From a virus: a stretch of DNA of 34,165 nucleotides. Location: IMG/VR virus record IMGVR_UViG_3300027985_000326, positions 1-34,165 of that record. One strand, 5' to 3'. This document shows, in pieces, positions 145 through 34,165 of the stretch. A model generated the notes under the pieces. That model saw only the letters and a list, made by a program, of their open reading frames with translations. It was not told the origin of the DNA and did not search any database. The translations under genes were made by a program, and so were the position numbers. The first letter of the stretch is position 1; every line of letters begins with the position of its first letter.

Positions 145-875
145 CCCTGTCGATCGCGCTGAATGCTGCACGATCCGGTGACGGTGTGGCCATCGCATCG
201 CTGGAAATGACCCCTGATGCTATGGCGCTGCGTGCGCTGTCAGAGGCGACGGCTCAGGCCGGGCATGCCTCCAGCTACAAGCAGCTGCGGCGTGGAGAGA
301 TTGCGGAGAGCCAATTCGACACGGTGCGAAATGTCGCACAGGGCGTCGCGGATCTGCCGATCATTTTCCTTGAGCGCAAGTTCGCGGACATCGACGCTCT
401 GGTGGCTGGCTGCCGCCAGATCAAGCGCAGCATGGGGGATGGGCTCAAGCTGCTCATCATCGACTACATGCAGCTGATCGAGGCAAAGGGAGAGAACCGG
501 ACGCAGGAAATCAGCCGCATCAGCCGGGCGCTCAAGGCGCTGGCAGGTGCGCTGAATGTTCCGGTCATCGCCCTGTCGCAGCTCTCACGTGCCGTCGAGA
601 GCCGAGAAGACAAGCGCCCAATGCTGTCCGACCTGCGCGAATCCGGGCAGATCGAGCAGGACGCAGACGCCGTGCTGTTCTGCTACCGGCACGAGTATTA
701 TGTCGAACGCGCCAAGCCGGACGAGAGCGATTTCGAGAAGGTCGAGAAGTGGCGGTCCATCATGGAGGCCACGCGCAACAGGCTCGACATCATCGTGGCC
801 AAGCAGCGCCAAGGCGAGATCGGGACGGCAAAGGTTCGCTGCAACGTCGCTCTCAACCTGATCTGGGAGGACTGA
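3..875 (+). CDS. dnaB: Replicative DNA helicase DnaB-like, C-terminal RecA-fold part (continuation of 33505..34021)
   Basis: Walker A 'GGRPSMGKTALAL', 'LLIIDYMQLI', 'SQLSRAVESR', 'LRESGQIEQDAD', 'IVAKQRQG'. The track ORF 42..875 is the same frame. Confidence 0.88.
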   Translation, partial: GIVAAYNGEKTEAVLTGIGALDRICGGFNPGDLIILGGRPSMGKTALALSIALNAARSGDGVAIASLEMTPDAMALRALSEATAQAGHASSYKQLRRGEIAESQFDTVRNVAQGVADLPIIFLERKFADIDALVAGCRQIKRSMGDGLKLLIIDYMQLIEAKGENRTQEISRISRALKALAGALNVPVIALSQLSRAVESREDKRPMLSDLRESGQIEQDADAVLFCYRHEYYVERAKPDESDFEKVEKWRSIMEATRNRLDIIVAKQRQGEIGTAKVRCNVALNLIWED

Positions 876-2107: not shown

Positions 2108-2638
2108 ATGAGTAAGCGCAAACCGGCACGCAAGCGCCACCAACCGAAAGGAAAGCCAGTGACCATTCACCAGCCGCAATGGGACCAGGGAGCATCGGGA
2201 CCGGCAAACCGGGAGCGACTGCACGAGGAACCGGCAACCGACATTGACCCGGAAACCGGCCGCGAGACGCCGAACCCGAACGGGATTCGTCGGCAGAGAC
2301 GGCAGACGTGGGTGACAATCTACGCGGCCAAGGGGCAGATCACGCGGGAACAGGAGGCCGCAGCTGAGAAGCTTCGCATGGCGGCTGATGGGATGCCTGA
2401 CCGCGACCCGCTGGCCGCAATAGGCGAGGTGCGCATTCGGCATAGCGCGGGAGACGCAGCAGCGGCGCGGATCGACGCACGCCGGTTCTATCACGAGCTG
2501 ATGGCGCGCATCCCGAAGGTATCGATGCCGGTCGTTGAGCGCGTCGTCGTGGATGATCTGCCAATCTGGCACGGCAACAGCGCACAGCGCGAGCGCCACA
2601 TGCAGCGGTTGCGCGACGGCCTCGACGCTCTCGCTTGA
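2108..2638 (+). CDS. Hypothetical basic protein (176 aa), last gene before the late-operon terminator; candidate late regulator
   Basis: ATG 2108 preceded by GAGGGCAGAGC. Lys/Arg-rich N-terminus 'MSKRKPARKRHQPKGKP'; helical C-terminal half. The regulator role is inferred from position only. Confidence 0.6.
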   Translation: MSKRKPARKRHQPKGKPVTIHQPQWDQGASGPANRERLHEEPATDIDPETGRETPNPNGIRRQRRQTWVTIYAAKGQITREQEAAAEKLRMAADGMPDRDPLAAIGEVRIRHSAGDAAAARIDARRFYHELMARIPKVSMPVVERVVVDDLPIWHGNSAQRERHMQRLRDGLDALA

Positions 2639-2678
2639 CAGGCGCGGCTAAGTCGGACAAATTGGCATCATCGCCAGA

Positions 2679-2712
2679 GGCGCGCGGGAGGGAAACCACT
2701 GCGCGCCTTTTG
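2679..2712 (+). terminator. Intrinsic terminator closing the rightward early operon
   Basis: GGCGCGC (2679-85) / GCGCGCC (2701-07), 7-bp GC stem, 15-nt loop, then TTTTG. Confidence 0.6.
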
Positions 2713-2777
2713 CGTTCTCTCCCTCGTTGCTTGGTCGCGGCGGTTTGTTCAGGCCGTCGCGGTTCGGGTGGTGTGTG

Positions 2778-3669: not shown

Positions 3670-5345
3670 AGCAGGGCTACGGAGCGACGGCCGAGGCATA
3701 TGCGCGCGCTGTTGTGAAAGGTGAGATACCGGCGGGGCGATACATCGTTGCCGCGTGCCGGCGCCATCTGGACGATCTGGAATGGCAGGACGATGACGGG
3801 TTCAAGTTCCGCTTCGACCCAAAGGCCGGGGCTCGGGTCTGCGCCTTCATCGAGCAACTGCCACACACCAAGGGGAAATGGGCGGCCAAGGGGGAACGCC
3901 TGAAGCTTGAACCGTGGCAGGTGTTCTTCATCGTCTGCCTATTCGGGTGGCTGCGGAAGAAGGACGGGAAGCGGAGGTTTCGCAGGGCGCTGCTGCTGGT
4001 GCCGCGGAAGAACGGAAAGAGCGCGCTTGCCGCGGGAATCGGGCTTTACATGCTCTGCGCCGATGGGGAACACGGCGCCGAGGTCTATTCCGGCGCTACG
4101 AGCGAAAAGCAAGCATGGGAGGTCTTCCGTCCGGCGAAGCTGATGGCGCAGAAAAGCCCGGCGCTGGTCGACCATTTTTGCCTGACGGTCAACGCGAAGA
4201 ACCTGCACATCATCAGCAATGGGTCTCGGTTTGAGCCGATCATCGGGAACCCCGGAGACGGGGCCTCTCCGTCCTGCGCCATCGTCGACGAATACCACGA
4301 GCACGACACTGACGCGCTTTATTCGACCATGGAAACCGGGATGGGGGCACGGGAGCAGCCGCTCATGCTGGTGATCACGACCGCGGGCGACAATATCGCC
4401 GGGCCCTGCTACGCGATGCAGCACGAGGCCCAGCAGATGCTGGATGGATCGCGCCGAGATGATGAGACATTCGCGCTGATCTATGGCGTGGATGATGGAG
4501 ACGACTGGACAGACCGGGCGGTGCTGCGCAAGGCAAACCCGAATTTTGGGGTGAGCGTCTTCGAGGACTTCCTTCTGGCGCGGCAGGCAGAGGCCATGAA
4601 CAGCCCGCGCAAGGCCGGGGCGTTCAAGACCAAGCACCTCAATATCTGGGTGCAGAGCCGGGCGGCCTATTTCGACACGCTGCGATACCAGAAGGCGCCA
4701 AAGGTCAGGCTTGAGGATTTCGAGGGGCAAGAGTGCATCATCGGCATTGACCTTGCCGAGAAGCGAGACCTCACGGCGGTTGAACTGCTGTTCCGCCACG
4801 GCGACGGCTTCGCGCGCTTCGGGCGCTACTACCTGCCCGAGGAAACGGTCGATCGGCCGGAAAACGAACACCTGCAGCGGTGGCGCGATGAGGGACTCCT
4901 GATCCAGACGGACGGCGCCGTCACCGACGACCGCGAAATCCGCGACGACATTCTGGAGCTGGCCGAGCGGTTTAAAGTGCGCGAAGTCGCATTCGACCCG
5001 CTGCACAGCCGGCAGATGGCGGTGGAACTGATGGAGCGTGGCTTGACCTGCATCGACTATGCGAACCGGCCAACGCTGATGAATGAGCCGATGCGCAAGA
5101 TGGATGCGCTGATCGCGGACGGGAAACTGGCGCATGACGGTGACCCCGTCTTTGCATGGATGGTGTCGAACGTCGTGAACCGGAGCCGAACCGGCGACAT
5201 TCACAGCCCGGCGAAAGAGCGGGCAGAGAACAAGATCGACGGGCCGGTGGCCTGCATGATGGCGCTCGGGCGGTGGCTGCTCGATGAGGCCGGAGACGAG
5301 AGCACCCCGTGGGATGCTGACCCAGATTACAGGATGGCGATCTGA
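3666..5345 (+). CDS. Terminase large subunit
   Basis: 559 aa. Walker A-like 'VPRKNGKSALAAG', Walker B-like 'AIVDEYHEH', C-terminal nuclease-size domain. Located between TerS and portal. Confidence 0.9.
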   Translation: MKQGYGATAEAYARAVVKGEIPAGRYIVAACRRHLDDLEWQDDDGFKFRFDPKAGARVCAFIEQLPHTKGKWAAKGERLKLEPWQVFFIVCLFGWLRKKDGKRRFRRALLLVPRKNGKSALAAGIGLYMLCADGEHGAEVYSGATSEKQAWEVFRPAKLMAQKSPALVDHFCLTVNAKNLHIISNGSRFEPIIGNPGDGASPSCAIVDEYHEHDTDALYSTMETGMGAREQPLMLVITTAGDNIAGPCYAMQHEAQQMLDGSRRDDETFALIYGVDDGDDWTDRAVLRKANPNFGVSVFEDFLLARQAEAMNSPRKAGAFKTKHLNIWVQSRAAYFDTLRYQKAPKVRLEDFEGQECIIGIDLAEKRDLTAVELLFRHGDGFARFGRYYLPEETVDRPENEHLQRWRDEGLLIQTDGAVTDDREIRDDILELAERFKVREVAFDPLHSRQMAVELMERGLTCIDYANRPTLMNEPMRKMDALIADGKLAHDGDPVFAWMVSNVVNRSRTGDIHSPAKERAENKIDGPVACMMALGRWLLDEAGDESTPWDADPDYRMAI

Positions 5346-23104: not shown

Positions 23105-23213
23105 CTTGGGGTTTGCTCTTTGGTGCGTTGAACCTGCGCGGACCGTGAATGCCTGCGAATTTCTGCTACATTCCTCCTGAAAACATTGCTCTTTTGCGTG
23201 AAATCCCTTGTTT

Positions 23214-23276
23214 TGTGGTAGGTGCTGCCTCCTCCTAAGGGGCAGGTTGGTGGTTCGAATCCACTCGGGGTCACCA
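23214..23276 (+). tRNA. Partial (3' ~50-60 nt) tRNA-Arg(CCU)-like segment = attP core; not a complete tRNA gene
   Basis: Anticodon stem GCCTC/GGGGC, loop CT-CCT-AA, variable AGGTT, T-arm GGTGG-TTCGAAT-CCACT, acceptor 3' strand CGGGGTC-A-CCA. No matching 5' acceptor strand upstream. The integrase stop is 14 nt away. Confidence 0.75.
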
Positions 23277-23290
23277 ATAAAATCAAGGAC

Positions 23291-24325
23291 TTATGTAGTT
23301 TTCAGGGTTTTCCCTCTGGTGCGCTGGACTAAAACGGGTCCAGAGAGCTCCAGCGAACCGGCTGCGGCACGCAGGTGCTGCGGGCTAAACTGCGCATAGG
23401 TCGACCTGGTCACGCTCGGGTTCGAGTGCCCGAGATACTGCGCCACCTCCTCGATCGGGACGCCGGCCTCTACCATGAATCGGCCAGCAGTCCGGCGCAG
23501 ATCGTGCGGCGTGCAGTGCTCGATGCCGGCGCGCTTCACCGCAGCATTGAACCCGGTCTTGATCGAGCCGACCTTGCGCCCTCCCCACTCGACCACATAG
23601 GGAGAGATCGCGGCGGCCTTCGCCGTCTGCAGGGCGGCCATCAGCGAGTCGTTGATCGGCACGGTAGCACGCCCCTTTTTCGGTCCGATGTCATTCGTCG
23701 CGAGCCTCACCAGGCGGCGCTGCATGTCGACGCGATCCCAGGTCAGTTCGAGGATCGCGCCGATACGGCCGGCCGTGGTGAGTGCGAGCAGGATCGCGAG
23801 CTTGACATGCGGGTCCTGTGCGCCGTCCAGCAAGAGGCGCGTCTCGTCTCTGGTCAGGTATCTGTCCCTCGGCGGCGGCGCCTTCGGCAGCTCGATCTGT
23901 GGCACGACGGTGATCATGCGCCTCTTCTGGGCCCACAACAGCGCCGCGCGCAGGCAATTGAGCTCGGTGCGGATCGTGCCGTCCATGCGGCCCGCTTTGC
24001 GACGTCCGGCGATGTAGGCGCGACAGTCCTCGACGGCCACCTGCTCGGCGGCGAAATGGCCGAAGACGGGCAGGATGTTTCTGCCAACCTGAGCCAGCTT
24101 CGACGCCTGCCGCCGCTCCCCCATGTCGACGCGATACGCCTCCCAGATCTGCGCGACGGTGACCCCTGAAGCCGGCGCCTGCGCGTGGACGATCAGGTCG
24201 CGGGCCTCGCGCTCCGCATCTGTCTTTGTCTCAGCCGCAAGACGGTATCGACGGCGCTTGCCGTCGTCGTCGTTCCAGACGACGACCCACCGCCCTTTGA
24301 GGCGCCCGAGGCGATAGTCCCGCAT
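23291..24325 (-). CDS. int: Tyrosine integrase
   Basis: 344 aa. N-terminal arm-type domain 'YRLGRLKGRWVVVWNDDDGKRRRYRL'. C-terminal 'HDLRRTAGRFMVEAGVPIEEVAQYLGHSNPSVTRSTYAQF' shows the R..H..R..Y catalytic pattern. RBS GGAGGA. Confidence 0.92.
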   Translation of the reverse strand: MRDYRLGRLKGRWVVVWNDDDGKRRRYRLAAETKTDAEREARDLIVHAQAPASGVTVAQIWEAYRVDMGERRQASKLAQVGRNILPVFGHFAAEQVAVEDCRAYIAGRRKAGRMDGTIRTELNCLRAALLWAQKRRMITVVPQIELPKAPPPRDRYLTRDETRLLLDGAQDPHVKLAILLALTTAGRIGAILELTWDRVDMQRRLVRLATNDIGPKKGRATVPINDSLMAALQTAKAAAISPYVVEWGGRKVGSIKTGFNAAVKRAGIEHCTPHDLRRTAGRFMVEAGVPIEEVAQYLGHSNPSVTRSTYAQFSPQHLRAAAGSLELSGPVLVQRTRGKTLKTT

Positions 24326-27343: not shown

Positions 27344-27401
27344 GATCTCTCGGGATGCCGCCCGGCTCGCGGGCGGTCACCGGAGAGGTCAGATCAGGCG
27401 G
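27344..27401 (-). promoter_or_regulatory. Conserved stop-codon/hairpin RNA element, copy A (after recT)
   Basis: On the transcribed strand: CCGCCTGATCTGACCTCTCCGGTGA-CCGCCCG-CGAGC-CGGGCGG-CATCCCGAGAGATC. Near-identical to 32404-32458, with two compensatory stem base-pair swaps. Confidence 0.7.
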
Positions 27402-28198
27402 CCATCCTCAGCCTGCTCGTCCTGATGATGGATCACGGACATCGCTTCCTCCTCCGCGCGGGCGAGGTCTTCGGCGCTCGGCCAGAGGTCATGCGCCTGC
27501 TCGATCTGCGCCGGCGCAGCATCGTGGATTTCGTCGACTACGGTGTCGTCGACATAGACGGATCGGCCGGGACGCGGTGCTGCGCGAGGGGTCACATCGC
27601 GCGCGGTGTCGGGGCCGTAGTCCTGCACCTCCTCGGCAATCGAGAGTCCGAGCAGCGCATCCGGGGCTCCGTCGCGGATCGCGAAGGCCCGCGCGCGCAT
27701 CTGCAACATGCGCTCAGGATACTGCGTCCACGGGCCGGGCTTCTTCGACAGGCCTGCGCGCTCGGCATCGGACCATGAAAACCGGCGCACGATCTTCTTG
27801 CCGTCCTTGCGGGTCAGCGTGGCAACAGCGGCGCGTGTTTTGCCCTCGCCTTCCATCTCGACATCGACGAAATGGCCAGCAGCCATGACCATCGCAGGGA
27901 GGGCATCCCCCCAGACCGAGGGACGGCCATTGATGACTGCGATGTATTGCAGCGCCTGCATCGGCGCGAGGCCGACGTTCGCCCCCTGAAGGATCGCAGC
28001 CATGACGGCTTCGGGCTTGCCCTGAAAGTGCTTCGGGATCATGTCGCCCGCCTGCGAGAGCGCCTTCGCGAGGCGAAAGGCGTCCTCAATGGTGTGCGGC
28101 GTCATGGCTTCGATCAGGCCGGACTTGATGCCGCCAGCGATCGGCTTGAGCTTCGGAGGCTTCGGCGCAGCCTGAGCGGACAGTGCGGTTTCGGTCAT
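27389..28198 (-). CDS. recT: Single-strand annealing recombinase (RecT/Redbeta-type)
   Basis: 269 aa from ATG 28198 (RBS AGGAGGG). 'GANVGLAPMQALQYIAVINGRPSVWGDAL', 'YPERMLQMRARAFAIRD'. Paired with an exonuclease gene. Confidence 0.65.
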   Translation of the reverse strand: MTETALSAQAAPKPPKLKPIAGGIKSGLIEAMTPHTIEDAFRLAKALSQAGDMIPKHFQGKPEAVMAAILQGANVGLAPMQALQYIAVINGRPSVWGDALPAMVMAAGHFVDVEMEGEGKTRAAVATLTRKDGKKIVRRFSWSDAERAGLSKKPGPWTQYPERMLQMRARAFAIRDGAPDALLGLSIAEEVQDYGPDTARDVTPRAAPRPGRSVYVDDTVVDEIHDAAPAQIEQAHDLWPSAEDLARAEEEAMSVIHHQDEQAEDGRLI

Positions 28199-28212
28199 GG
28201 ATATTCCCTCCT

Positions 28213-29223
28213 TCACGGGGCTTGGAATTGCATCGAGGCGGCGCGGGCGGCCTCGCTCGGTTTGGGTTTCGGCGCGATTTCCGGGAAGCCGTGCGCGGCT
28301 GCGCTGTTGCGGCGGTGCCAGATCGGAGCGGCGATCTGCGCCACGCGGCGCGGGTATCCCGGCCACTCGCCACTATCGAGACAGGCCCGCCACTGGCGGC
28401 GCGCACGCCTGAGTTTCTGCTCGGCATCTGCGAACCAGTCTCCGGTCAGCGTCTCATCCGGCTCGTAATCGCTGGCCGGGCGCATCGTGCCATCTGACCA
28501 GAGTTCAACCACGCCGACCTCGAATGGCGGAGCCTTCTCGACGAACACGAACCGCATGGTGCGCTCCTCGCCGGTCAGCTCCTTCAGGATGCGCAGGTAA
28601 TGTGCCGCGCTGATGTCGTAGCCGCGATCTGCGACTGTCTTCGCCAGCGCATCCGGGTGAACGCTACCAGCCGTGGTCTTGAGGTCGAGCGCATATGTCT
28701 TTCCTGGCGGCAGGTTGTCGAACATGCAGCGGTTCCAGACGCCATCGAACTTCGCCAGCATCGCCACCTCGGAATGGTCCGGGTCGATGGGCATGTTCAT
28801 CTCGCGGAGCGCCGCTCCGACCTTGCGAGCGATGTGGTTAATGGCCTCGACCTCCGCCTCCTTGAGCGGCGTGACGCCCCGGTTTCGGCAGTCGGCGACG
28901 AATTCCTTCGCCTCCTTCGTGCGGATGCCGCCGTCGGCAGACAGCATTCCGTCGGGGATCGCCTCGAAGTCCTCACCCACTCCCAGCACCAGTCGGTGCG
29001 CGGCGGTGCCGATGTCGAAGGCCTTCTTCACCTCCGGCTCCCAATCCGGGTTCAGGCGAGGCGAGGCCGTCCAGGCATGAAGCGGCGTCTCCGAGATCAG
29101 CACCTTGGCGACGCTCGACGACAGGCTCGGCTCGGGCGCCGGATCGCTGTGATAGACATCGGCTGGCAGGCGGTAGACACCAGCGCCGAGGTGGACATTT
29201 TCAGGATGCAGGATTCCGTCCAT
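28213..29223 (-). CDS. PD-(D/E)XK exonuclease (RecE/DUF3799-like)
   Basis: 336 aa. 'GVYRLPADVYHSDPAPEPSLSSSVAKVL' opening, 'YALDLKTT' (D/E-x-K) core. Immediately upstream of recT. Confidence 0.7.
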   Translation of the reverse strand: MDGILHPENVHLGAGVYRLPADVYHSDPAPEPSLSSSVAKVLISETPLHAWTASPRLNPDWEPEVKKAFDIGTAAHRLVLGVGEDFEAIPDGMLSADGGIRTKEAKEFVADCRNRGVTPLKEAEVEAINHIARKVGAALREMNMPIDPDHSEVAMLAKFDGVWNRCMFDNLPPGKTYALDLKTTAGSVHPDALAKTVADRGYDISAAHYLRILKELTGEERTMRFVFVEKAPPFEVGVVELWSDGTMRPASDYEPDETLTGDWFADAEQKLRRARRQWRACLDSGEWPGYPRRVAQIAAPIWHRRNSAAAHGFPEIAPKPKPSEAARAASMQFQAP

Positions 29224-29474
29224 TACCTGGCCTCCATATGATCCGCCTGCCAGCGCGCGGCGGCATATCGCCCGAGAGGGTCGATGGCGCACAGGGCCAC
29301 CAGAGCGCAGACAGAGGCCGCGATCACCAGTAGCCGCAGTGCGGCAGGCATCTCCGCCTCCGCGCGCATCTGAGCGGCGTTGAGATTGGCCTGAGGCGCA
29401 CGGATCGCGTCGGCCTCCCGGATCATCCGGTCGCGCTCGATGTCGAGCCAGCTCGGGGTGATGATGGCGGTCAT
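29223..29474 (-). CDS. Hypothetical membrane protein (83 aa)
   Basis: TM segment 'LRLLVIAASVCALVALCAI'. Overlapping start and stop with both neighbours. Confidence 0.55.
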   Translation of the reverse strand: MTAIITPSWLDIERDRMIREADAIRAPQANLNAAQMRAEAEMPAALRLLVIAASVCALVALCAIDPLGRYAAARWQADHMEAR

Positions 29475-29644
29475 TTCGACACCGCCGCCGCCATCGCGTC
29501 TGCATCGACAAGCTCATCCGTCATCAGTGCGATCTGGCGCAGAGACTGGCGGTCAACCATCGGATGCTCGGTCGTGTCGCGGCATGCGCGGATAGCGGCA
29601 TAGGCCGCTCTGTTCAGCGCCCGGATTGCCTCACTGTAGGTCAT
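29471..29644 (-). CDS. Hypothetical protein (57 aa), below the ORF-track threshold
   Basis: ATG 29644 after AGGAG. 58 codons with high GC3. ATGA overlap with the next gene. Confidence 0.5.
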   Translation of the reverse strand: MTYSEAIRALNRAAYAAIRACRDTTEHPMVDRQSLRQIALMTDELVDADAMAAAVSK

Positions 29645-29658
29645 CTGAATCTCCTGTG

Positions 29659-29706
29659 AAAAAGCCGCGGGCTGAGTATGGGGAGGAGTACGCCTCAGCC
29701 CGCGGC
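29659..29706 (-). terminator. Strong intrinsic terminator inside the leftward early operon
   Basis: 13-bp perfect stem GCCGCGGGCTGAG/CTCAGCCCGCGGC, 17-nt loop, followed on the minus strand by TTTTT. It abuts the RBS of the 57-aa gene. Confidence 0.7.
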
Positions 29707-29769
29707 AGGTGTCCGCGCGATCCCCCGGCTAGAGGAGGGAGGCAGCAGCGCGGCGGTTATCTCGATCTG

Positions 29770-29807
29770 CCCCGGCCCTATGTGTCGTGAGTGGTGGCGG
29801 GCCGGGG
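29770..29807 (-). other. Second GC hairpin just after the first leftward gene
   Basis: CCCCGGCCC / GGGCCGGGG, 9-bp stem, 20-nt loop, no U-tract. Lies 8 nt downstream of the stop at 29815-17. Confidence 0.45.
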
Positions 29808-29814
29808 CGCGGTG

Positions 29815-30054
29815 TCAGCTGTTGTCCGGGTCGGACAGGAAGGCGGAGTGGCGCCACATCAGATCGCGCAGCTTCTCGGCCTCCTGATCGATCTGGATCA
29901 CGAGGTCGTCGATCTCGTCGGCCGCCTCGGGGTTATAGTCGCTGTAAGGGGCGATCCGCTGGGACTGCTCATACATCGCCACGATGCGGCTCAGCGGGTG
30001 CAGCGGGTCTGCCTTCCAGCGCTCCGCGACAGGGATGGAGGTATGGGCGTTCAT
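29815..30054 (-). CDS. First gene of the leftward early operon, acidic 79-aa hypothetical protein
   Basis: ATG 30054 after GGGAGA. Lies between the candidate PL/operators and the internal terminator. Confidence 0.6.
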   Translation of the reverse strand: MNAHTSIPVAERWKADPLHPLSRIVAMYEQSQRIAPYSDYNPEAADEIDDLVIQIDQEAEKLRDLMWRHSAFLSDPDNS

Positions 30055-30119
30055 TCATGTCTCCCATCTGTGGTCCCGCGATCGGCCCGGGGTGGGTGTC
30101 AGCGGCGGGTGATGGGGAT

Positions 30120-30148
30120 ACAGTAGCGTTCAGCGCTACTTTGCGCAA
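30120..30148 (-). promoter_or_regulatory. Candidate early-left promoter (TTGCGC-N17-TACTGT)
   Basis: Minus-strand -35 at 30148-30143 and -10 at 30125-30120. Operator O1 fills the spacer and the -10. Confidence 0.45.
30122..30140. promoter_or_regulatory. Operator O1: AGTAGCG-TTCAG-CGCTACT
   Basis: Perfect 7-bp inverted repeat with a 5-bp spacer. Confidence 0.7.
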
Positions 30149-30155
30149 CATAAAA

Positions 30156-30174
30156 AATAGCGATTAGCGCTACT
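30156..30174. promoter_or_regulatory. Operator O2: AATAGCG-ATTAG-CGCTACT
   Basis: Same 19-bp dyad with one mismatch. Centre is 34 bp from the O1 centre. Confidence 0.65.
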
Positions 30175-30230
30175 CTGTGTTGAGATCGGCATGTCGTTAG
30201 AATGGATGAGTTTTCTCGCTTCCAGACAGC

Positions 30231-31039: not shown

Positions 31040-31279
31040 ATGGAACCTGCAAAGAACATCATCGCAAGGCTGGGTGGACCCGCGCAGGTCGCGGATGCCC
31101 TCGGCATTCATCGCACCCGCCCTTACTGCTGGATGAAGTCGCGAGAGCGCGGCGGAACTGGCGGGCTGATCCCGCAAGAGCACTTTCAGCGCCTCATTGA
31201 GATTGGCGCCGAGAGGGGAGTCGTCCTCACCGGGGACGATTTTGTCCCAACCCCGTCGGTGCGTAAGGCCTCCGCATGA
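31040..31279 (+). CDS. Cro/YdaS-like small HTH protein (79 aa)
   Basis: Divergent from the repressor. 'IIARLGGPAQVADALGIHRTRPYCWMK' is a Cro/YdaS-type HTH. No SD upstream of the ATG. Confidence 0.65.
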   Translation: MEPAKNIIARLGGPAQVADALGIHRTRPYCWMKSRERGGTGGLIPQEHFQRLIEIGAERGVVLTGDDFVPTPSVRKASA

Positions 31280-31343
31280 CCGACCACCCTGAAAATTCAT
31301 CTCTTCCATGGCGCCACCATGGCAACCCGGAGGCCGCACGGCC

Positions 31344-31793
31344 ATGAGAAACGGCATTCTGATTTCGCAGGAAGATGCGGCGCGGCGCATGGAAGATGCT
31401 CTGCGCCTTCGGGTCGGACGTGGAAGGCGTTTCTCGTTTCCGGCGCTTTCGGATGCGACCGGCATTCCGACGCGAACGCTCGAAAGCTATGTGCAGGGGG
31501 CAACTCCTCAATTGCATGCGCTGCTGTCGATCTGCTCCGTCCTCGGGCCGTCGTTCACGAGTGACGTTCTGTCGCCCTGCGGACAGGCGGCGCATGATGC
31601 GGCCCCGGGCGAACCGGAGCACATGCGTGTCGTCGCTGCCCTTGGTGAGCTGGTGACGCAGATTTCAGAGGCTATCTCCGATGGCCATGTCGACCACCGA
31701 GAGGCAGCGCGGATGCGGCCGATCGCGGCGCGTCTGATCGAACTGCTGGAGCCTCTGGCGCAGGTGTCTCACGTCGCAGGGATTGGGAAATGA
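31344..31793 (+). CDS. HTH regulator, CII-like by position (149 aa)
   Basis: 'LSDATGIPTRTLESYVQGATPQLHALLSICSVLG' is an XRE-type HTH. Second gene of the rightward operon. Start 31344 (GGAGG upstream) or 31308. Confidence 0.55.
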   Translation: MRNGILISQEDAARRMEDALRLRVGRGRRFSFPALSDATGIPTRTLESYVQGATPQLHALLSICSVLGPSFTSDVLSPCGQAAHDAAPGEPEHMRVVAALGELVTQISEAISDGHVDHREAARMRPIAARLIELLEPLAQVSHVAGIGK

Positions 31794-33508: not shown

Positions 33509-34165
33509 ACACCGTGACCGCCATTCGTGCTGATGCGCTCCCGATGAATATCGAGGCGGAGCAGCAGCTGATCGGGATGGCACTCCTGGAGCCGTCGATC
33601 CTGTCGCGCATCGCCATGCGTGGAGGGGCCGCCCTGTTCGCTGAGCCGACGCATGCTCGCGCATTCGAGGCTATGGTCGCCAAGGAGCGCGTCGGGCACC
33701 AGGTAGATATTGTGACGGTCGGGGAGGCCATGAGGGGGGAGGAGTGCCTCTCCGCTCTCGGCGGGCCGTCATATCTGGCGCGCTGTGCAGGGGCCTGCAT
33801 GAGCCCTGTCGCGGCACCTGGCTACATCGACATTTTGGCAGATCTCGCCGCCAAGCGCAGCCTGATCTCGGCCATGTCGGAGGCGCAAGCATCCATTGCC
33901 CGCGGTGACATGCAGGCCGCGCAGATCGCGGCGCGGCTGGAGGCGTCTCTGATCGCGGCATCCGACGTCGACGCAAAGCGCGGTCCCGTGTCGATGCAGG
34001 CCGCCGTTTTGAAGGCGCTCAAGGGCATCGTCGCCGCCTACAACGGCGAGAAGACCGAGGCCGTGCTGACTGGAATCGGCGCACTTGACAGGATCTGCGG
34101 TGGTTTTAACCCGGGCGATCTGATCATTCTCGGCGGCAGGCCGTCGATGGGAAAGACTGCGCTCG
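33505..34165 (+). CDS. dnaB: Replicative DNA helicase DnaB-like, N-terminal part (runs off the window end and continues at 1..875 on the circle)
   Basis: ATG at 33505 overlaps the upstream TGA (33506-08). The frame stays open to the window end. N-terminal 'NIEAEQQLIGMALLEPS' is DnaB N-domain-like. The frame is continuous with 3..875 through the repeat; the joined ORF is 1,392 nt (463 aa). Confidence 0.85.
   Translation, partial: MNTVTAIRADALPMNIEAEQQLIGMALLEPSILSRIAMRGGAALFAEPTHARAFEAMVAKERVGHQVDIVTVGEAMRGEECLSALGGPSYLARCAGACMSPVAAPGYIDILADLAAKRSLISAMSEAQASIARGDMQAAQIAARLEASLIAASDVDAKRGPVSMQAAVLKALKGIVAAYNGEKTEAVLTGIGALDRICGGFNPGDLIILGGRPSMGKTAL
34022..34165. repeat. Terminal direct repeat copy 2 (identical to 1-144)
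   Basis: Same as copy 1. Position 34022 corresponds to position 1. Confidence 0.97.

Follow-up and report, generated by a model that had tools for sequence, protein, structure and literature searches.

In Rhodobacterales and Rhizobiales, cuckoo small RNAs (sRNAs), such as CcsR and NfeR1, act as global regulators of translation in stress, in symbiosis, and in C1 and nitrogen metabolism. Members of the family consist of two to four adjacent hairpins that carry the anti-Shine-Dalgarno (aSD) motif CCUCCUCCC, or an accepted variant of it, in their loops on compensatorily variable stems, and they are found in Rhodobacterales and Rhizobiales (PMC4615179). According to the criteria used to define the family, linkers between hairpins are at most 10 nt long and no multiloop is allowed, and each hairpin spans 24-50 nt, with a loop of 9-27 nt, a helix of at least 6 bp and interruptions of at most 6 nt (PMC4615179). 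RNase E releases the CcsR RNAs from the 3' untranslated region (UTR) of a small-protein mRNA (PMC8034643), and the aSD seeds of NfeR1 silence mRNAs via occlusion of their ribosome-binding sites (PMC10746234). Cuckoo RNAs have been described as chromosomal or plasmid genes, and phages are unmentioned in both the family paper (PMC4615179) and the CcaF1 paper (PMC8034643); no report of a phage-borne cuckoo RNA was found in the literature searched. Here we analysed the virus record IMGVR_UViG_3300027985_000326 over its full length (34,165 nucleotides, referred to as the window), and we describe a two-hairpin element in its leftward early operon which, on balance, we read as a divergent, phage-borne cuckoo-type RNA, cut from the transcript of the early leftward promoter (PL), whose own terminator attenuates the downstream genes.

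The element lies between the first gene of the operon, which encodes a protein of 79 amino acids (79-aa), and a gene for a 57-aa protein. The features of this region are as follows, in the order of transcription.

29769-29808, minus strand: hairpin 1, a 10-bp stem with a C/A-rich loop of 20 nt (GCCACCACUCACGACACAUA) and without a U-run
29713-29753, minus strand: hairpin A, with an outer 6-bp stem (CCGCGC/GCGCGG) and an inner 5-bp stem (29737-33 with 29726-22)
29707-29712, minus strand: linker ACACCU between hairpins A and B
29664-29706, minus strand: hairpin B, with its 5' arm at 29706-29694, its loop at 29693-29677 and its 3' arm at 29676-29664
29659-29663, minus strand: terminator U-run (U5), which lies 3 nt ahead of the Shine-Dalgarno (SD) sequence of the following gene
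29471-29644, minus strand: 57-aa gene, with SD AGGAG at 29655-29651 and ATG at 29644

Hairpin B is made of 13 perfect pairs (11 G-C and two A-U) around a 17-nt loop, GCGUACUCCUCCCCAUA, which reads GCGUA-CUCCUCCCC-AUA, with CUCCUCCCC at 29688-29680. An earlier note on this DNA, made from the letters alone, had called it a perfect GC stem of 13 bp, which is right for the pairing and not for the composition. The hairpin has a predicted energy of about -29 to -30 kcal/mol (z -6.5), with none of 200 shuffles as stable, and it is the joint most stable among the hairpin-plus-T-run sites genome-wide (34 kb), the tied site being antisense inside a tail gene. A standard terminator scan allows only loops of 3-8 nt and missed hairpin B for this reason. 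The stable GC-rich stem is directly followed by U5 on the transcribed strand, which is the structure of an intrinsic terminator; the 17-nt loop is longer than in usual terminators and is consistent with the terminator loops of ar14, which have 9-10 nt or more. Hairpin B and the U5 tract thus very probably form a working intrinsic terminator inside the leftward early unit, as predicted from their structure. The sequence check places the strong terminator that the earlier note had reported after the first leftward gene at essentially the same position, and the run of five T ahead of the ribosome-binding site of the next gene is there as well (U-run at 29663-29659, AGGAG at 29655-29651).

There is no room for a promoter between hairpin B and the 57-aa gene, so the downstream genes need read-through, as had been claimed. 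A sigma-70-like sequence, TTCACA-16-TACAGT (29660-29633), was judged a chance match; it cannot express the 57-aa gene because its -10 lies inside the 57-aa open reading frame (ORF). We also considered an attenuator with alternative pairing and rejected it: no upstream segment complementary to the 5' arm of hairpin B was seen by eye, and the default folds keep hairpin B closed.

Hairpin A, which is located between hairpins 1 and B, had been overlooked by the earlier note. It contains a C/U-rich tract, CCUCCCUCCUC, at 29742-29732, and the decisive feature missed at that stage is the CCUCC-type aSD motif present in both hairpins A and B. Hairpin 1 (-25.6 kcal/mol, z -4.1, with none of 200 shuffles folding as well) had been described as a 9-bp hairpin at 29770-29807, which is the same helix as the 10-bp one at 29808-29769 minus the closing G-C pair. 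No long complementary target for its loop was found within the window.

By collecting contigs with homologues of the 57-aa protein, we were able to identify five further copies of the window-type element (L013, L014, L015, L016 and L002, the last one cut by the contig end). Their stems are identical, and what little differs is confined to hairpin A and to the part of loop B that does not belong to the C/U tract; the inner pair 29736/29723 of hairpin A, for example, is U-G in the window, U-A in L014, L015, L016 and L002, and G-C in L013. A covariance model (R1) was built from five window-type copies, and it found full-length matches in L004 (29.7 bits, E 3e-6), L029 (29.6 bits) and L033 (24.7 bits), in each case within the same early operon and on its sense strand. 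With the window type these three variants have in common the outer stem of hairpin A (GCGCG), the linker CACCU and a U-rich tail equivalent to U5 (ACUUUCUC in L004, CUUUUC in L029 and L033); they also have a hairpin B, whose stem sequence differs. In the R1 alignment all cells of hairpin B are paired, seven of the 13 pairs have changed on both sides, and the stem exists in four versions; this covariation was reached by none of 500 shuffles, and slid controls gave 33-52% pairing. The R1 alignment is fitted to the structure, which favours pairing; the four stem versions are still plainly complementary by eye. G-U pairs appear in the alignment of hairpin B only when it is read on the sense strand.

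The motif in loop B stays while the stems around it change, as it does in cuckoo RNAs. It is CUCCUCCCC in the window type, CCUCCUC in L004-6 and UCCUCCC in L029, and it is thus kept in three of the four stem-divergent versions. Any of the three motif 7-mers occurs about 25 times in 68 kb (both strands), which by our own arithmetic from the 7-mer frequency gives a chance of about 0.003-0.006 per loop. In 549 kb of related phage DNA, 14 hairpins bear the motif, 12 of them on the sense strand of the operon. The loop B motif is under selection. One hairpin was not counted as a member: L012 has a perfect CCUCCUCCC hairpin (4464-4501, plus strand; 13 bp, loop ACUCCUCCUCCC), which was set aside because it lies inside an apparently genuine ORF with high G+C at third codon positions (GC3), where it encodes Y-S-S-S-R. 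It is found just downstream of a 57-aa homologue, and R1 scores it at 16 bits.

Similarity to the cuckoo family was weak and was seen repeatedly. In a permissive Rfam scan, CcsR1 (RF02791, "Conserved CCUCCUCCC motif stress-induced RNA") matched the window element with 17.2 bits (model positions 1-83, E 0.05 locally), covering exactly hairpins A and B and U5, and ar14 (RF02344) matched it with 13.3 bits over the whole model. When the variants were scanned separately, L004 matched ar14 (23.3 bits, E 0.007) and L029 matched CcsR1 (16.9 bits, E 0.04); L033, whose loop B lacks the motif, matched neither of the two models, and neither did a control terminator of the same phage (2590-2760). A match to Atu_C7 in L004 and L033 was left uninterpreted. 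With its filters off, R1 recovered each of the four ar14 copies that three Rhizobium loci contain, with the matches placed at the ar14 site (10-13 bits, E 0.1-0.5), and with default filters it hit the right place in just two of 12 loci. Among 151 sampled alphaproteobacterial genomes R1 gave one match (L097, 28.9 bits), a bacterial locus built of a hairpin, CACCU, a hairpin with a CCCUCCCC loop, and U7 (tail AUUUUUUU), for which the best Rfam match is ar14 (25.7 bits, E 0.004). The true ar14 RNAs of two Rhizobium-type genomes likewise end in a GC stem of 12-13 bp with a CCUCCUCCC or UCCUCCCC loop and a U-run. In L097 (995-1090, minus strand) a second C/U-rich tract, CACUCCUCCCUCUCU, and a further terminator (CCCCCGCCGGC...GCCGGCGGGGG-UUUUCUUU) are found about 60 nt downstream of the element; they also match ar14 weakly (16.7 bits), and the locus may thus hold a tandem pair.

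Measured against the published definition, hairpins A and B are adjacent (6-nt linker ACACCU), and hairpin B falls within all size limits (43 nt, 17-nt loop, 13 bp). The element resembles CcsR1-4 (RSs0680a-d of Rhodobacter/Cereibacter sphaeroides, RF02791) in having two adjacent GC-rich hairpins with a CCUCCUCCC-type aSD motif, and RF02791 is its best Rfam match. The host range is alphaproteobacterial for both, and CcsR, like the proposed phage RNA, derives from the 3' UTR of an mRNA for a small protein, without a promoter of its own. Unlike CcsR, the phage element has an upstream gene that is not DUF1127, is present as a single copy and not as a tandem cluster, and sits inside an early operon, where the second hairpin is itself the terminator and genes follow directly. 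To ar14/NfeR1 (Smr14C of Rhizobiales, RF02344) the likeness is in the build of the terminal hairpin, and both the L004 variant and L097 match ar14 best; however, ar14 has three hairpins, each with the exact motif, and its own regulated promoter, and true members score at least 100 bits as compared to 13-26 bits for the phage element.

Several observations weigh against an assignment to the cuckoo family. The scores are far below the Rfam gathering thresholds (17.2 vs 65.3 bits for RF02791 and 13.3 vs 58.8 bits for RF02344, with variants reaching up to 23-26 bits), there is no Rfam match at gathering score anywhere in the genome, and CcsR1 matches of 16-19 bits occur several times by chance in a 7-Mb genome, so a single CcsR1 match proves little. 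The motif agrees with CCUCCUCCC at 8/9 contiguous positions in hairpin B and at 7/9 in hairpin A, where CCUCCCUCCUC is partly within the inner stem; moreover, the motif of hairpin A is disrupted in L013, L004 and L029 have the motif in hairpin B only, and L033 has it in neither loop. Hairpin A (41 nt, 6-bp outer helix) is outside the size limits, with either a 29-nt loop or an internal loop of 10-11 nt. The authors of the family warn that two-hairpin candidates are the least significant and rich in false positives (PMC4615179). A plain terminator would give the same stem covariation, no promoter of its own is visible at the module, and loop B has no long, specific complementarity to targets in the phage. 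Given the imperfect motifs, the size of hairpin A, the unkept motif of hairpin A and the authors' warning, we file the element as a divergent variant, which very probably functions in the manner of a cuckoo RNA, and not as a proven member.

As for possible targets, the predicted pairing to phage start regions is of the generic SD type only, the best being to GGGAGGA before the DUF1376 gene at 879 (-17.9 kcal/mol). We note two extended SD tracts in the phage, GGGAGGA at 865-871 (plus strand; DUF1376 primosomal gene) and GGGAGGAG at 33737-33744 (plus strand; inside or upstream of the DnaB region), which are the best in-phage complements to the CUCCUCCC loop.

If the element is indeed such a divergent cuckoo-type RNA carried by the phage, polymerase that initiates at the repressor-controlled PL would transcribe the leader, the 79-aa gene, hairpin 1 and then a cuckoo-type module of about 100 nt formed by hairpins A and B and U5 (~29757-29659, minus strand). 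A fraction of the polymerases would stop at hairpin B and U5, and the terminated transcript, or a 3' fragment cut at GAGAUAAC before hairpin A, would expose CUCCUCCCC; such a cut, at the sole A/U-rich stretch, could be RNase E-like as for the CcsR RNAs, and since the module has no promoter of its own, a discrete sRNA would depend on this processing. The exposed CUCCUCCCC would then pair with strong SDs of host or phage mRNAs and block their translation, and the remaining polymerases would continue past the terminator to transcribe the 57-aa gene, the recombination genes, xis and int. With such a split, a single hairpin would form the 3' end of an sRNA and also attenuate the delayed-early genes. 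Termination, accumulation of a discrete RNA and its action in trans on ribosome-binding sites are the steps that we infer, and read-through would be most simply explained by incomplete termination at the 5-U tract. Judged from the sequence, hairpin B most likely ends a phage-made regulatory RNA, beyond being a mere stop that needs an antiterminator.

Phage sRNAs that derive from early or late operon transcripts have been described in lambda, namely PreS (LPR1, early left operon) and 6S RNA (tR'), and in the case of 6S RNA the downstream genes require read-through of the sRNA terminator (bioRxiv 10.1101/2024.10.31.621285). The phage element has no relation to PreS or 6S RNA in sequence or structure; PreS activates dnaN by specific pairing, and read-through of the 6S terminator uses Q, of which no counterpart was found in the phage. 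If a copy of such an RNA is carried by a phage and expressed early, temperate phages of these bacteria would be drawing on this regulatory seed to redirect translation in the host or the phage, similar to the recent finding for lambda PreS; it would also be a simple case, open to testing, in which an sRNA 3' end and an operon attenuator are combined in one hairpin. We further consider, as a rather speculative and unlikely extension, that one of the earliest transcripts made after loss of the repressor mimics the host anti-SD stress sRNAs (CcsR/NfeR1), with stop (giving the sRNA) versus read-through (giving recombination, excision and integration functions) at hairpin B working as a timer. If so, the mimic would hijack the host cuckoo regulon, or damp the strong-SD replication genes of the phage itself (GGGAGGA, 879), and a virus would have captured a core host riboregulator family and put it to new use.

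The relatives indicate which parts of the region travel together. L003 has the 79-aa gene and hairpin 1, and a 69-aa gene then follows right after GAUCGAG; in L014, a homologue of this 69-aa gene is directly followed by hairpins A and B and the 57-aa gene. From these two joints, hairpin 1 belongs to the module of the 79-aa gene (with which it moves, in L003 as well), and hairpins A and B form a cassette that travels with the 57-aa gene. The element is therefore not bound to the first gene of the operon, which corrects the earlier description: in L014 it stands after a different gene, and in L003 the 79-aa gene and hairpin 1 lead directly into the 69-aa gene. The cassette is found directly upstream of the 57-aa gene solely in the close relatives, with variants in L004-6 and L033. 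In the majority of the distant relatives, the 57-aa gene abuts the preceding one with no upstream gap and no cassette, which makes the terminator accessory and not a fixed part of this type of operon.

These relatives are few, mostly short metagenomic contigs. Searches of the phage GenBank collection, and of IMG/VR with the 79-aa or the 57-aa protein by itself, found no close relatives; exact 26-mers of the element had no match in IMG/VR or in the JGI metagenomes, and BLAST of the region against 401 sampled Hyphomicrobiales genomes gave short chance matches only and no close prophage. The phage genes have relatives in genomes of Rhizobium and Hyphomicrobiales, and some related proteins bear names from Gemmobacter and Pseudogemmobacter; this range would fit the Rhodobacterales/Rhizobiales range of the cuckoo family.

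The layout of the operon raises the question of antitermination. The phage is a small, lambda-like temperate siphovirus of alphaproteobacterial type, and its record is a complete genome (34,165 bp, terminal repeats, 63% G+C), with the late genes (HNH, terminase, portal, capsid, tail) on the plus strand. The features that surround the element are listed below.

30281, end of the S24 CI-like repressor gene, with its own small terminator at 30252-30231
30120-30175, minus strand: candidate PL with two dyad operators (AGTAGCG-N5-CGCTACT), read from the sequence
30148-30143 and 30125-30120, minus strand: -35 (TTGCGC) and -10 (TACTGT) of PL, with a 17-nt spacer and a putative start at about 30113
30055-30113, minus strand: conserved 5' leader of the early-left transcript, CAUCACCCGCCGCUGACACCCACCCCGGGCCGAUCGCGGGACCAC..., followed by an SD
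29815-30054, minus strand: gene of the acidic 79-aa protein, the first after PL (GC3 0.90)
Up to 30054, minus strand: leftward early operon, including RecT (27389-28366) and a DUF3799 exonuclease
23291-24325, minus strand: integrase

PL and the dyad operators sit between the repressor terminator and the 79-aa gene, and the 57-aa gene (18 homologues of its protein were found) is followed by an 83-aa gene, the exonuclease, RecT and, further on, xis and int. In position, the terminator corresponds to that of lambda tL1 (with N and nutL) and of HK022 putL, being the first one past PL and before the recombination, xis and int genes. The earlier note had concluded from this position that a dedicated antitermination or attenuation step of the lambda tL1/N or HK022 put kind is implied. 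Put as a rival explanation, hairpin B would be a plain intra-operon terminator that needs dedicated antitermination, the C/U-rich loops being incidental, and the antiterminator would be an unrecognised protein (e.g. the 79-aa product) or a nut- or put-like RNA in the 5' leader; we consider this improbable. It has in its favour the strong hairpin plus U5 between PL and all delayed-early genes with no promoter room, the lambda-like layout (cI with a terminator, OL/PL, a small first gene, a terminator, recombination genes, xis and int), and a second terminator (2679-2711) before the late genes, behind a 176-aa protein, which hints at antitermination-style control elsewhere. The leader, moreover, is much more conserved than the adjacent ORF (2 of 58 nt differ from L003, as compared to 46 of 240), begins at the putative PL transcription start, and is near-identical behind at least eight operator/promoter sets and before at least five first genes (L002, L003, L013, L015, L092-L095); the PL -10 and everything downstream of it are common to L003, and the operators differ. 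In L092-L095, however, the 3-5 kb of available sequence that follow the leader contain neither a strong intrinsic terminator nor an R1-like element (Rho-dependent sites are not visible), which means that the leader does not serve hairpin B as a dedicated read-through signal. A put RNA consists of two stable stem-loops; the predicted fold of the leader is weak (z +0.66, no better than shuffles), no boxA/boxB-like pair is evident, and no Rfam match for a put- or nut-type RNA was found in the region, and with its weak fold and its lack of coupling to terminators the leader was rejected as put or nut.

The earlier note had seen no N or Q homologue, and none is found by Pfam, PHROGs, exhaustive HMMER or fold search; as candidates, the 79-aa protein and the 176-aa protein before the late-gene terminator were both rejected. 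The 79-aa protein, modelled as a helical hairpin (AlphaFold, pLDDT 88), is acidic and without an arginine-rich motif; Pfam and PHROGs place it in no family, a search of 1.84 billion representatives revealed no remote homologue, and its fold has no match either. At the protein level it is conserved in five relatives (just two came from the database search), and its gene is separable from the terminator (L003, L014). Unlike lambda tL1, the terminator is part of an accessory cassette that is missing at this site in most of the distant operon relatives, and the leader is uncoupled from it; a need for antitermination would also leave the selected aSD loop motif unexplained. With no N-like protein, boxA/boxB or two-stem put-like RNA found in the phage, a dedicated N- or put-like antitermination system is not supported. 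For annotation, this means that a strong terminator in an early operon need not signal an N/Q-like antiterminator. Another explanation, which we hold to be unlikely as well, is that the element acts purely in cis, either by pairing of the aSD loops with the SD of the 57-aa gene 8 nt downstream or by protection of the upstream mRNA 3' end, with no trans-acting RNA involved. CUCCU in loop B is indeed complementary to AGGAG at 29655-29651, the cassette is always alongside the 57-aa gene in the close relatives, and stable 3' hairpins commonly stabilise the upstream mRNA. In the minimum-energy folds, however, the SD of the 57-aa gene is unpaired and loop B is closed by the 13-bp stem, across which a loop-SD pseudoknot with an 8-nt connector appears sterically doubtful; in L029 about 100 nt separate the element from the start codon that follows, and L097, the bacterial homologue, is placed behind a gene and not ahead of one. 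It is very improbable, finally, that the hairpins are neutral or matter at the DNA level only, as palindromes or as hot spots of recombination at module boundaries, although the mosaic joints coincide exactly with the edges of hairpin 1 (after GAUCGAG, L003) and of the cassette (L014). The compensatory changes preserve an RNA helix with G-U pairs solely in the sense-strand reading, the U-run is on the transcribed strand only, and the loop motif is conserved on different stems; a repeat like the repetitive extragenic palindromic (REP) sequences was rejected, because the element is single copy in the genome.

Some further observations concern the leader and the rest of the genome. In L092 and L095, about 560-620 nt past the leader, the loop sequence of hairpin 1, GCCACCACUCACGA, is kept on a different, compensating stem (CCCCGGCGGC/GCCGCCGGGG), and two more conserved hairpins and no aSD cassette follow; L093 looks like a deletion that joins the leader to the hairpin 1 loop. 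The rightward operon is headed by a cro-like gene (31040-31279, plus strand; weak P22_Cro match), whose start is 9 nt past the PR -10, so that its mRNA is probably leaderless, and a cII-like gene follows (31308-31793, plus strand; weak CII (Phage_CP76) and HTH matches). A hairpin plus T4 at 31221-31243 was considered as an analogue of tR1 after cro and rejected as a terminator, because it is inside the cro-like ORF. ARAGORN predicts a complete tRNA-Arg(CCU) gene (23202-23276, plus strand) that adjoins the integrase gene and is probably either the attP region or a phage-borne tRNA; a CCTCCTCC match at this site is due to the anticodon arm. Upstream of the late genes (region 2636-2727, plus strand), a promoter-like TTGACA-N17-ACAAAT overlaps the stop of the 176-aa gene, and the terminator at 2679-2711 (-21 kcal/mol, T4) directly follows this site and abuts HNH and the late genes. 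The 176-aa protein has no Pfam, PHROG or PDB fold match; at least 158 homologues were found (Gemmobacter-type prophages), and the layout of gene, promoter-like site and terminator resembles lambda PR'-tR'.

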